Assembly (NCBI RefSeq): GCF_003334815.1
Contig: NZ_QOWO01000067.1
Direction: 5' to 3' (one strand)
DNA: 7,586 bases
Source: Escherichia coli
Lineage (GTDB): Bacteria > Pseudomonadota > Gammaproteobacteria > Enterobacterales > Enterobacteriaceae
Part shown: positions 3,180-5,787 of the stretch, piece by piece
Position numbering within the stretch: the first letter of the stretch is position 1
How the letters are laid out: the number at the start of each line of letters is the position of its first letter
The notes under the pieces: model-generated
The model's input: the letters and a program-made list of their open reading frames with translations, nothing else
Told to the model about the DNA's origin: nothing
The model's database searches: none
Position numbers and translations under genes: made by a program

Positions 3180-3959
3180 TTATGGAATTCTTTTGAGCAT
3201 AGACACCGCATCGGACTCAGGCATCGAAAACTGCACCCGGTGCCGTGCAGCCACATCCAGTGCAAACACCTTCGTGTAGACCTCCGTTGAGCTGATGGAC
3301 TTATGCCCCATCAGGCTCTGCAGGACCTTCAGCGGTATACCGGCATACAGCATATGCATCGCATAGGAATGGCGGAACGTATGTGGCGTGACCGGGACAG
3401 AGAACGTCACACCGTCAGCGGCAGCGGCGGCAACCGCCTCCCCAATCCAGGTCCTGACCGTTCTGTCCGTCACTTCCCATATCCGCGCTTTCTCTGTCCT
3501 GCCTGTTCGTTTATTACGCCGTTCCATGGGGATTTTCAGTGTGGCCACCATCGTCTGCAGCTGGCTGACGTACCAGGCGTCGGAGAGCGGAACCAGCCGG
3601 TGAGTCTGCTGACCGGCGGGCATTCTTCCTGCCGTCCTGGCGGCTTTTTCCGTCCGTTGTTTCAGGGTCGCAAGCTGCACAAACGGATACGGAGGCGTGA
3701 GCGAAAAATCCCCCCGCGTCAGCGCCAGTGCTTCATTAATGCGCGCACCGGTGTTCCACAGTGTGGCCAGCAGCATCTTGCGGCGCAGATCCGGGACGTA
3801 ATGGAGCAGGGCGCTCACTTCAGGGGCCAGCAGGTATTTGGGCAGTTCATCATGAACCATCGACATCTGGCGGAGTGCCAGCGCTGCCGGATAATCGATG
3901 GCAACAGGAAGCTGAGCGGCATCCCGGGCATGGTGGATCGGTGCCGGCAGGTGCTGCAT
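3180..3959 (-). CDS. Tyrosine site-specific recombinase (plasmid resolvase/integrase family, ResD-like)
   Basis: The C-terminal region carries the tyrosine-recombinase box II signature HTFRHSYAMHML...LMGHKSISSTEVYTKV (His-x-x-Arg, then His, then the catalytic Tyr), and an ARINEAL-type box I arginine sits earlier. Start placed at ATG 3959..3957 (M52 of track ORF 3180..4112), 1 nt after the stop of the upstream ORF, giving 259 aa. Overall it resembles plasmid multimer-resolution recombinases of F-like/I-like plasmids, as recalled from memory, not searched. Confidence 0.85.
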   Translation of the reverse strand: MQHLPAPIHHARDAAQLPVAIDYPAALALRQMSMVHDELPKYLLAPEVSALLHYVPDLRRKMLLATLWNTGARINEALALTRGDFSLTPPYPFVQLATLKQRTEKAARTAGRMPAGQQTHRLVPLSDAWYVSQLQTMVATLKIPMERRNKRTGRTEKARIWEVTDRTVRTWIGEAVAAAAADGVTFSVPVTPHTFRHSYAMHMLYAGIPLKVLQSLMGHKSISSTEVYTKVFALDVAARHRVQFSMPESDAVSMLKRIP

Positions 3960-3960
3960 A

Positions 3961-4374
3961 TCAGTGTTCACTCCACGGGGAAACGTCGGGCAGGTTTTCC
4001 ACAACCCTGTATTTTCCCGGATAACGGAGCTGGTTACCGCCACGCGTCCGGACGGTGACAACAAAACCCCCGCCCTGGTTGTTTTCGGGGAGCAGGCGAT
4101 CGCACTGCTCACTCAGCATGTGGATCACAAACGGCGCATCGCTGCCGTCTTCAAATATCAGTTCCAGCGCATCGCGGCCATCCAGCGTTCCCTTACTGAT
4201 GATGACGTACTCAGCCCCCCGCATCTCCCTGAGTAAATGTTTTGCCGCATCCGGGACAAGCAGCCTGGCTTCGCCGGCATTCCAGCTGAGGTAGACATAT
4301 CCGGCCTGCGCCTGTACAGACTGCCAGTAATCCGTTCTGGCGACAGCCTGACCTTCATTCTCAATAAAAAACAT
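3961..4374 (-). CDS. Hypothetical 137-aa protein, first gene of the recombinase operon
   Basis: Track ORF 3961..4413. I start it at ATG 4374..4372 (MFFIENEGQAV...) because of a strong AAGGAG 8 nt upstream. The stop TGA at 3963..3961 is separated by 1 nt from the recombinase ATG (TGATATG). No recognisable catalytic motif or membrane segments; family not recognised. Confidence 0.6.
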   Translation of the reverse strand: MFFIENEGQAVARTDYWQSVQAQAGYVYLSWNAGEARLLVPDAAKHLLREMRGAEYVIISKGTLDGRDALELIFEDGSDAPFVIHMLSEQCDRLLPENNQGGGFVVTVRTRGGNQLRYPGKYRVVENLPDVSPWSEH

Positions 4375-4410: not shown

Positions 4411-4495
4411 CATGCGATAACGTCATCCATCATCACTGCCCTTACCGTCACTCCGTCTGATAACATCATGCCGTTATCATCATCACCATGATAAC
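4411..4495. repeat. GATAAC/CATG repeat cluster, candidate recombination site or operator for the adjacent recombinase operon
   Basis: GATAAC at 4416..4421, 4459..4464 and 4490..4495, inverted GTTATC at 4473..4478, and CATCATCAC twice (about 4429..4436 and 4479..4486). Three GATAAC copies abut CATG. Lies 40 to 120 bp upstream of the operon start at 4374. Confidence 0.35.
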
Positions 4496-4811
4496 AAGCA
4501 TCCATATAACCACGCCGTTAAATTACCGGAGAGCCGTTTCCGTCAGATCCGACTTTTCGGAATATCACAACTTTCCGGAAGTGTACCACGCTGAGGAAAT
4601 AATCATATCGCTGTTTTCCGCCCCTGCGCGGCGCATCACAGGTCAGGGAGATGACACAACATATAGTGTCATCAGCAGCTGAATCCGGCACCACATGTTG
4701 TGCTGACGGGAGGTGGCGTTGTGTGGGGGGAGAAGAAGATCCGTAACCGCCGGAAACCGGATCTGCGCGGCGGGAAACGGGCAAGTGATATGGTAATTGA
4801 GCAATACACAC

Positions 4812-4867
4812 AAAATCATATCAGATATGATTTTCATCATTGATGATAGAACCATATCTGATATTAT
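4812..4867. promoter_or_regulatory. Palindromic operator array and candidate sigma70 promoter for the + strand operon starting at 4943
   Basis: Perfect 23-bp palindrome AAAATCATATC-A-GATATGATTTT (4812..4834); 13-bp palindrome TCATCA-T-TGATGA (4834..4846); 11-bp palindrome ATATC-T-GATAT (4854..4864). Candidate -35 TTGATG (4840..4845) and -10 TATTAT (4862..4867) with a 16-bp spacer overlap the palindromes. Confidence 0.45.
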
Positions 4868-4942
4868 AAGAAATCAGGAGCACACAAATCATACAGGATA
4901 TTATTTTTACCTGTCAGAACATTATCAGATGGAGCGTGCAGG

Positions 4943-5197
4943 ATGGATGAAGAAAGGGTGTTTTCACTCAGCTATGAGCAACTAACCCGAATAGCGGAAA
5001 AAAATATCCGTGAATGTGGGCTGGACAACCAGAGCGCCAGGTGTATCAGTGAACTGAAGGCCTCAGCTCTGCTGTGGTTGTGGTATGAACTGGCCATTCA
5101 TGGTGCGCCACAGAACAATCACGCACAGGCCCGGGAACGCATCGATACCGATTATCAGCGCCTCAAAAAACTCATCTGGTCGGAGGGTGACAGTTAA
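4943..5197 (+). CDS. Hypothetical 84-aa protein, first gene of a two-gene operon
   Basis: ATG at 4943 with GGAG about 10 nt upstream. The stop TAA (5195..5197) overlaps the next ATG (TAATG). No transmembrane segment; family not recognised. The + strand is preferred over the long antisense ORF (5063..5803, -), whose translation is an Arg/Pro/Ala-rich artefact typical of the reverse strand of a GC-rich gene. Confidence 0.55.
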   Translation: MDEERVFSLSYEQLTRIAEKNIRECGLDNQSARCISELKASALLWLWYELAIHGAPQNNHAQARERIDTDYQRLKKLIWSEGDS

Positions 5198-5787
5198 TGA
5201 CTCAGAGCCGCCGACCGTCGCCACTGCAGCGGAGAGTGCTGATTGTGCTGGCTGCGCTTGATGAAAAACGGCCGGGCCCCGTGCTGACGCGGGACCTGGA
5301 ACGGGTGCTGGAGCGAAGCGGGGAAGCCCCGGTCTACGGGCCAAACCTGCGCGCCTCCTGCCGTCGTCTGGAGGATGCCGGCTGGCTGCGTACCCTGCGC
5401 GCCCCGAACCTGCAGCTGGCAGTGGAGCTGACGGACGCCGGCCGGGCCGTGGCACAGCCTCTGCTGCTGGCAGAACAGGACCGCCTCCGGGCAGAACAGC
5501 GTGCGGCAGAAGTCGTCGTACTGCCGCTGGTCCCGGCAGCAGGTCTGCCCGCAGACGGCACTTCTGCCACTGATCTGGCGGTGGAGCTGAACGGCATAAC
5601 GTATCAGGCCTGCCGCGGGGATTTTGTGGTGCGTCTCGACGGCAGCACCTGTCTGCAGTTATGGAATAAAGAAGGCAGGGTGGTACGCCGGGAGGGCGAT
5701 CCGCTGGAAGTGGCGCAGTGGCTGCAGGCCTGTCATGACGCAGGAATAGAGGTTCGCGTACAGATAAATGAAAGTGCCGCTCCGTAA
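5197..5787 (+). CDS. Hypothetical 196-aa protein, possible winged-helix DNA-binding N-terminal domain
   Basis: ATG at 5197 overlaps the upstream stop. The N-terminal ~90 aa (LQRRVLIVLAALDEKRPGPVLTRDLERVLERSG...) has the hydrophobic/charged periodicity of a winged-helix domain (inference). The C-terminal ~100 aa is unrecognised. Markedly GC-rich compared with the rest of the window. Confidence 0.55.
   Translation: MTQSRRPSPLQRRVLIVLAALDEKRPGPVLTRDLERVLERSGEAPVYGPNLRASCRRLEDAGWLRTLRAPNLQLAVELTDAGRAVAQPLLLAEQDRLRAEQRAAEVVVLPLVPAAGLPADGTSATDLAVELNGITYQACRGDFVVRLDGSTCLQLWNKEGRVVRREGDPLEVAQWLQACHDAGIEVRVQINESAAP

Follow-up and report, generated by a model that had tools for sequence, protein, structure and literature searches.

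The window, by which we mean the whole 7,586-nucleotide stretch of Escherichia coli DNA analysed here, contains an intergenic region of 529 bp (4414-4942, 46.5% G+C) that separates two divergent gene groups, and the question is what this DNA does. The first-pass annotation had drawn attention to a GC-rich island at 4600-4790 and had suggested that it could be what is left of a deleted gene, a structured RNA or a region bound by protein. The last of these was right in kind. With high confidence, we assign a 28-bp core (4737-4764) and the conserved non-coding block adjoining it (4502-4736) to rfsF, the multimer-resolution site of a conjugative plasmid of the IncI-gamma/K1 type, which would be the recombination site of the adjacent ResD together with its conserved flanking DNA. 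The element is already known and is an ordinary member of the rfsF/ResD sites.

Conjugative IncI-gamma/K1 plasmids of E. coli match the window at 100% identity, and no phage match to it was found. The minus-strand group comprises the gene for a 137-aa protein (3961-4374), which is first in the operon and is annotated in the identical plasmids and in R64, followed by resD (3180-3959), encoding the cognate tyrosine recombinase of the site, and the gene for ParA. On the plus strand, the gene pair 4943-5197 and 5197-5787 encodes proteins of 84 and 196 residues, to which family searches assigned no function. Pfam and NCBIfam searches of these three small proteins (137, 84 and 196 residues) gave nothing useful. 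The presence of a colicin Ia gene downstream marks the window as carrying the Col-type side. No gene is annotated in the intergenic region of the identical plasmids. Strong steps in G+C content were observed in the window at 3200-4300 and 5200-5700: resD and its partner gene are at about 60% and the 196-aa gene at up to 70%, with neighbouring genes at 31-45%. These steps would fit a mosaic in which the modules flanking the core differ in origin.

The leader directly upstream of the 137-aa/resD operon (4416-4495) carries GATAAC-type repeats and a palindrome, TGATAAC-N8-GTTATCA (~4458-4479). These elements are present in IncI-type plasmids (the window, pO26_EH031_2 and R64) but missing from F, where ccdAB replaces the 137-aa gene. 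This region may be an operator for the operon. The palindrome was also considered as the core of a recombination site, and was rejected as it is confined to the IncI-type operon leader and absent from F.

The identification as rfsF starts from the recombinase. The product of the gene at 3180-3959 (minus strand) is 94% identical over 251 aa to ResD (protein D) of F; the alignment shows the tyrosine-recombinase motifs HTFRHS and, at the C terminus, EVYT, and the protein matches Xer and integron tyrosine-recombinase families, below their cut-offs. The D protein of F is reportedly described as both repressor and resolvase in the title of a 1986 paper by Lane et al. When the intergenic region was compared with F nt 44,000-47,000 and 52,000-68,000, the only significant match was at F nt 45,939-46,165, between pifC and ccdA-ccdB-resD, and to this segment the block is 82% identical. 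The DNA shared with F extends from about 4502 to 4747 and is oriented in the same way with respect to resD. The block is common to every examined plasmid with a resD operon (F, R64 and several IncF and Klebsiella plasmids were aligned). The core motif was located at F nt 45,922-45,949 and at R64 nt 43,620-43,647. According to PMC4398462, F nt 45,922 is where pEC958 and F start to be homologous in RepFIA, with the order rfsF, oriV-1, ccdAB, resD, and an 'rfsF to yfcA' segment starts at R64 nt 43,620 (PMC8004404). Both published coordinates thus fall on the first base of the core motif.

The core, the presumptive crossover site (4737-4764, AGATCCGTAAC-CGCCGG-AAACCGGATCT), has the form AGATCCG-N14-CGGATCT: its outer inverted arms of 7 bp are perfect, its inner arms, of about 10-11 bp, are imperfect, and its centre of 6-8 bp is variable. 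This architecture agrees with rfsF as described in PMC5587640, namely imperfect inverted repeats of 10-14 bp around a spacer of 6-8 bp. The pattern matched nowhere else in the window with up to two mismatches allowed, and shuffling produced it in none of 200 versions of the F locus and in 4 of 200 versions of the window (at most two mismatches). Its outer arms are invariant in the 11 plasmids aligned and about 97% conserved in 48 homologues, in which the centre varies and the arms are kept. The 14-nt interior is TAACCGCCGGAAAC here, compared with TAACTTGGGGTTTT in F and R64, and a Klebsiella variant of the core has the left arm AGATCCGACTT. The first-pass annotation missed the core, although its string CCGGAAACCGG (4750) is the centre plus right arm of the perfect 7-bp inverted repeat; its CCGCCG (4747) also lies in the core. 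A core of the Xer type (dif/cer-like) was tried and discarded, as GGTGCG-N3-AA-N8-TTATGNTAAAT has no match in the window even with three mismatches.

How widely block and core occur together was determined by a scan of one genome per species, which gave 80 loci with ResD relatives of 47-100% amino acid identity. Probable contaminant contigs aside, all belong to Enterobacterales. A sequence-only model of window 4500-4772 detected the full block with the core in 48 of the 80 loci, always upstream of resD and with unchanged orientation. ResD in these loci is about 61-100% identical at the amino acid level, and the genera include Pantoea, Rahnella, Yersinia, Hafnia and Erwinia. Some ResD genes that are 92-99% identical to the E. 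coli one lie on contigs of unrelated taxa (Collinsella, Lachnospiraceae, Haemophilus, cyanobacteria, Alicyclobacillus and others; L014, L056, L062, L079-L085), several of them matching residues 145-258 alone. Most likely these contigs represent contamination, mini-F/BAC cloning-vector sequence or binning errors.

Plasmid records were searched with two queries. The 570-bp intergenic query gave partial matches in 4,146 records, 563 of them with at least 80% coverage. A 211-bp query centred on the island matched more than 5,000 records. The nucleotide search in other replicons, proposed as a check by the first-pass annotation, showed the segment to be widespread, and a gene was almost never annotated beneath the match. 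Among the matching places in complete E. coli genomes, 48 of 4,073 are on chromosomes rather than plasmids.

The block itself, which is about 235 bp long and lies on the resD side of the core, is homologous to the rfsF-ccdA region of F. As revealed by the 48 homologues, its conservation is gathered in short islands. At the resD-proximal edge, the island AATTACCG (4521-4528) has a mean conservation of 0.95. It is followed by an arm-like motif, GATCCGACTTT (4546-4556, plus strand), which is oriented like the left core arm and whose sequence is that of the left arm in the Klebsiella variant of the core; its first part, GATCCG (4546-4551), is exact in 43 of 48 homologues. From this resemblance GATCCGACTTT is a candidate accessory half-site for ResD. 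The most conserved island of the block is TTTCCGGAAGTGTACCACG (4572-4590, mean column conservation 0.97). It contains the palindrome TTCCGGAA, which is similar to the inner arm (TCCGGAAC) of the core variant found most often; the string [CT]CGGAAG, within TTTCCGGAAG (4572-4581), is present in all 48 homologues, and TAcCACG (4584-4590) forms a further conserved island.

The centre of the block is occupied by a palindromic element, ACACAACATATAGTG ... CAGCTG ... CACCACATGTTGTG (4652-4702, inverted repeat I7), with 14-nt arms that are 86% complementary and both kept across genera. Its symmetry accounts for the reverse-strand matches of the model at model positions ~150-210. The element is a candidate binding site for a dimeric factor, either a host protein or ResD. 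The arm-like motifs of the block do not co-vary with the core arms, as the Rahnella group has GTTCCGA in the block and GATCCG in the core. Judging by its conservation, the block is presumed to be an accessory or regulatory part of the resolution site.

On its other side the core borders on DNA of a different history. Homology between plasmids ends inside 4737-4764: in the 11 plasmids the left block is common to ten, while the right flanks are of at least six unrelated types. The ends of matches to the 211-bp query cluster at query positions 153-159, 175-178 and 151/160, corresponding to window ~4742-4749 and 4764. In the 48 loci, we compared the identity of the left block with that of the 100 nt beyond the core, and the two were uncoupled (r = 0.03, 1,128 pairs). 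Right flanks that were at least 80% identical (18 pairs) were accompanied in 12 cases by left blocks below 70%, and left blocks that were at least 80% identical (nine pairs) in five cases by right flanks below 60%. In the plasmid records the block was found 3,615 times and the right flank 1,714 times. The uncoupled flank identities and the unequal record counts together indicate that the core is a junction of recombination and module exchange. Within the core, breaks are not confined to a single nucleotide position. A centre that always travels with the right flank, which would mark a fixed point of first-strand exchange, was considered and dropped: it holds for the locus pairs L013/L022, L028/L042 and L041/L068 and is not general.

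The module to the right starts with GCGCGGCGGGAAACGGGCAAGTGATATGGTAATTGAGC (4765-4803, plus strand) and moves together with the 84-aa/196-aa gene pair rather than with resD. It is common to pJNE131328-1, Klebsiella pC587_1 and the loci L013, L022, L043 and L045; F, R64 and many others have unrelated sequence in its place. One Klebsiella plasmid shares the core and the right flank only, and there the right flank precedes a homologous small-gene pair, as in the window. Many Klebsiella IncFIB(K) plasmids carry, beside an ars operon, a solo 28-bp core (AGATCCGACTTAGCCAGAAATCGGATCT) with the right-hand module of the window but without the accessory block and with no resD beside the core (for example K. 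pneumoniae CP067638.1, locus L004, ~4985-5050; also hits H83-H89). Such solo cores may be products of rfsF-mediated or illegitimate exchange.

Further into the right-hand side, at 4812-4907, a 22-bp palindromic unit, AAAATCATATC-A-GATATGATTTT, occurs three times at a spacing of 36-37 bp, and a half-unit lies at ~4787-4794. The array overlaps a sigma-70-like promoter on the plus strand (TTGATG-16-TATTAT, 4840-4867) upstream of the 84-aa/196-aa pair, and is kept with the right-hand module in Escherichia, Buttiauxella, Hafnia and Klebsiella plasmids. It looks like an operator array. An Rfam match to mir-463 at 4816-4868 was discarded as a false positive that reflects the DNA palindrome of the array.

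The GC-rich island can now be placed. Its higher G+C content was confirmed (57% at 4600-4790 versus 46.5% for the whole intergenic region), and the strings listed by the first-pass annotation are where it put them: CTGCGCGGCG at 4624 and 4763, CCGGAAACCGG and CCGCCG in the core, CGGGAAACGGG at 4771 and CGGCGG at 4768. However, because homology stops inside the core, with unrelated right flanks beyond, the island is a composite. It consists of the right two-thirds of the block (4600-4736), the core and the start of the right-hand module (4765-4790), the latter holding most of the second CTGCGCGGCG copy, CGGGAAACGGG and CGGCGG. The repeated CTGCGCGGCG and GGAAAC units, which had been taken as the signal of the island, do not stand out clearly from chance and are not conserved. 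Exact direct repeats of 10 nt or more occurred in 290 of 2000 dinucleotide shuffles of the intergenic region (14.5%) and in 31 of 2000 shuffles of the island alone (1.6%), so the 10-nt repeat is only weakly unusual, and CTGCGCGGCG is exact in three of 48 homologues for copy 1 and in one of 48 for copy 2. We therefore rejected it as a functional unit. The proposed CCGCCG/CGGCGG stem is likewise not conserved among the homologues. The GC-rich stretches at 4615-4640, with the first CTGCGCGGCG copy, and at 4705-4736 are poorly conserved spacers of the block, and the two GC-rich segments are its least conserved parts in the 48 homologues (mean column conservation 0.52-0.61). The GC-rich stretches and the CTGCGCGGCG/GGAAAC repeats are probably unconserved spacer or flank without a role of their own.

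Three other explanations compete with a resolution site. That the island is the decayed remnant of a gene once located between the two operons has in its favour the two weak, poorly coding reading frames noted at the outset (4488-4682, plus strand, and 4518-4811, minus strand), which do exist and cover the island, as well as one minus-strand frame that stays open for about 80 codons in many homologues. Neither of the two is coding. The open minus-strand frame reflects composition, and it drifts relative to the core, since the distances between the two anchor motifs differ by 1-2 nt between homologues. Of 122 gap runs, 103 are not multiples of three; substitutions show almost no 3-nt periodicity (1441/1183/1196 by column phase), and 1-nt indels occur among close relatives in the G-run at ~4725-4730. 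The block is kept as non-coding DNA in 48 loci of many genera, with frame-breaking indels and with conservation in short invariant motif islands, as is typical of binding sites, and thousands of plasmid records have no annotated gene under the match. A gene remnant is thus extremely improbable. Somewhat less remote, but still very unlikely, is a structured RNA or a single-stranded DNA signal acting in conjugation, such as an Frpo-type single-strand promoter or an ssi priming site, which the thousands of matching conjugative plasmids had suggested. The plus strand of the window folds slightly better than shuffled sequences (z = -2.67 as RNA, -2.0 as DNA) and, as judged from gene orientation, is probably the transferred strand; RNAalifold on 10 close relatives paired the two GC-rich segments in a long G-U-rich stem, with a few compensatory changes. 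With the 48 diverse homologues this stem was lost and just two inverted repeats resembling protein sites were left, so that the folding and covariation check proposed by the first-pass annotation yielded no sustained structured RNA. Conservation in the block is lowest in the segments forming the stem, where indels also occur, and mean folding z-scores of the single sequences were weak and without strand asymmetry (-0.6 for the plus strand, -0.9 for the minus strand). Rfam 15 gave no match at 4500-4800, the island included, and only two sub-threshold matches in the whole window, and neither a sigma-70-like promoter nor a terminator was found in 4500-4765. In blastn, the intergenic region matched the F leading region (52,000-68,000), where Frpo lies, at chance level only (E >= 0.1). 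Lacking both homology to this region and a conserved stable fold, the Frpo/ssi candidate was rejected.

The third alternative concerns the conserved block. A 1986 paper by O'Connor et al. is said to place rfsF 'in the oriV1 region' in its title. The F homologue of the block is indeed labelled oriV-1 (PMC4398462), and the block might therefore additionally, or instead, be a secondary replication origin homologous to F oriV-1, with the island as origin DNA. We regard this as unlikely, although less so than the two preceding explanations. The block accompanies resD in 48 loci of many genera and in IncI, IncF and IncR contexts, whatever the replicon, and no DnaA-box-like or AT-rich unwinding element is prominent among its conserved islands. 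IncI plasmids replicate from the RepZ origin. The ori-1 of F requires the pifC/repC product, but the annotation of 18.6 kb around the site includes no pifC, and R64 nt 43,000-45,500 shows only the 137-aa gene, resD and parA.

For the preferred reading as rfsF, the following mechanism can be proposed. ResD would bind the two inverted arms of the core, as established for tyrosine recombinases and for ResD/rfsF of F. Two cores on a plasmid dimer would be synapsed by ResD, and strand cleavage and exchange across the centre of 6-8 bp would turn the dimer back into partitionable monomers. The arm-like GATCCGACTTT, TTCCGGAA and the central palindrome of the block would bind extra ResD and/or a host factor. 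Such accessory binding may favour intramolecular resolution and may also let ResD repress local transcription. Occasional intermolecular recombination by ResD at the core could lead to swaps of 'Col'/'Delta' gene sets and of IncF modules.

The closest relatives of the site are the rfsF-ResD systems of F, R64, ColIb-P9 and IncR plasmids, which have the same core architecture and outer arms, a homologous block of ~230 bp and the same order of core, block, small genes and resD. They differ in the core interior, in the first gene of the operon (ccdAB in F versus the 137-aa gene here) and in the distal flank, which is the pif side in F and a Col-type module here (the 84-aa/196-aa pair and colicin Ia). 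Their role as a junction between exchangeable gene sets in F, IncI1 and IncR plasmids is the same: switching between the Delta and Col sets of genes has been reported at rfsF (PMC8004404), and rfsF is likewise an exchange site in IncR and IncFII mosaics (PMC9412624).

Other systems are similar in layout. In TnpI/IRS of Tn4430 and in Xer-cer/psi, which are unrelated in sequence to the site in the window, an inverted-repeat core would likewise stand at one end of 100-250 bp of conserved accessory DNA, on the side of the recombinase gene. The accessory part of the Tn4430 IRS has extra arm-like motifs (DR1/DR2), to which those of the block may be compared, and in both systems, as presumed here, the accessory DNA is presumed to restrict recombination to dimer resolution. 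cer and psi use host proteins, whereas TnpI acts with the recombinase only. Cre/loxP of P1 and FLP/FRT also have a core that consists simply of two inverted arms flanking a 6-8-bp spacer, and serve dimer resolution (PMC5587640). However, loxP and FRT work without accessory DNA, whereas in 48 of the 80 loci the core has a long conserved block beside it.

A more far-reaching proposal can be made tentatively, which we rate at somewhat less than an even chance. The 235-bp block could be a dedicated, recombinase-specific accessory module across Enterobacterales that would make ResD/rfsF a 'res-like' multi-site tyrosine-recombinase system, with an additional half-site for ResD (4546-4556), a TTCCGGAA site (4572-4581) and the palindrome at 4652-4702 for a further factor. 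Such a module might control the topology and order of strand exchange and might explain rfsF as a major hotspot of module swapping that shapes the IncF/IncI/IncR mosaics. No dissection of the block architecture was found in the searchable literature.

Recognition of the rfsF site avoids its misannotation as an RNA or a pseudogene and provides a predictable breakpoint for the analysis of plasmid mosaics. According to the comparative data and the literature, rfsF is also a junction for the exchange of resistance, colicin and virulence modules among IncI, IncF and IncR plasmids. For the plasmids themselves, the large low-copy conjugative plasmids are stably inherited because rfsF/ResD keeps them monomeric.
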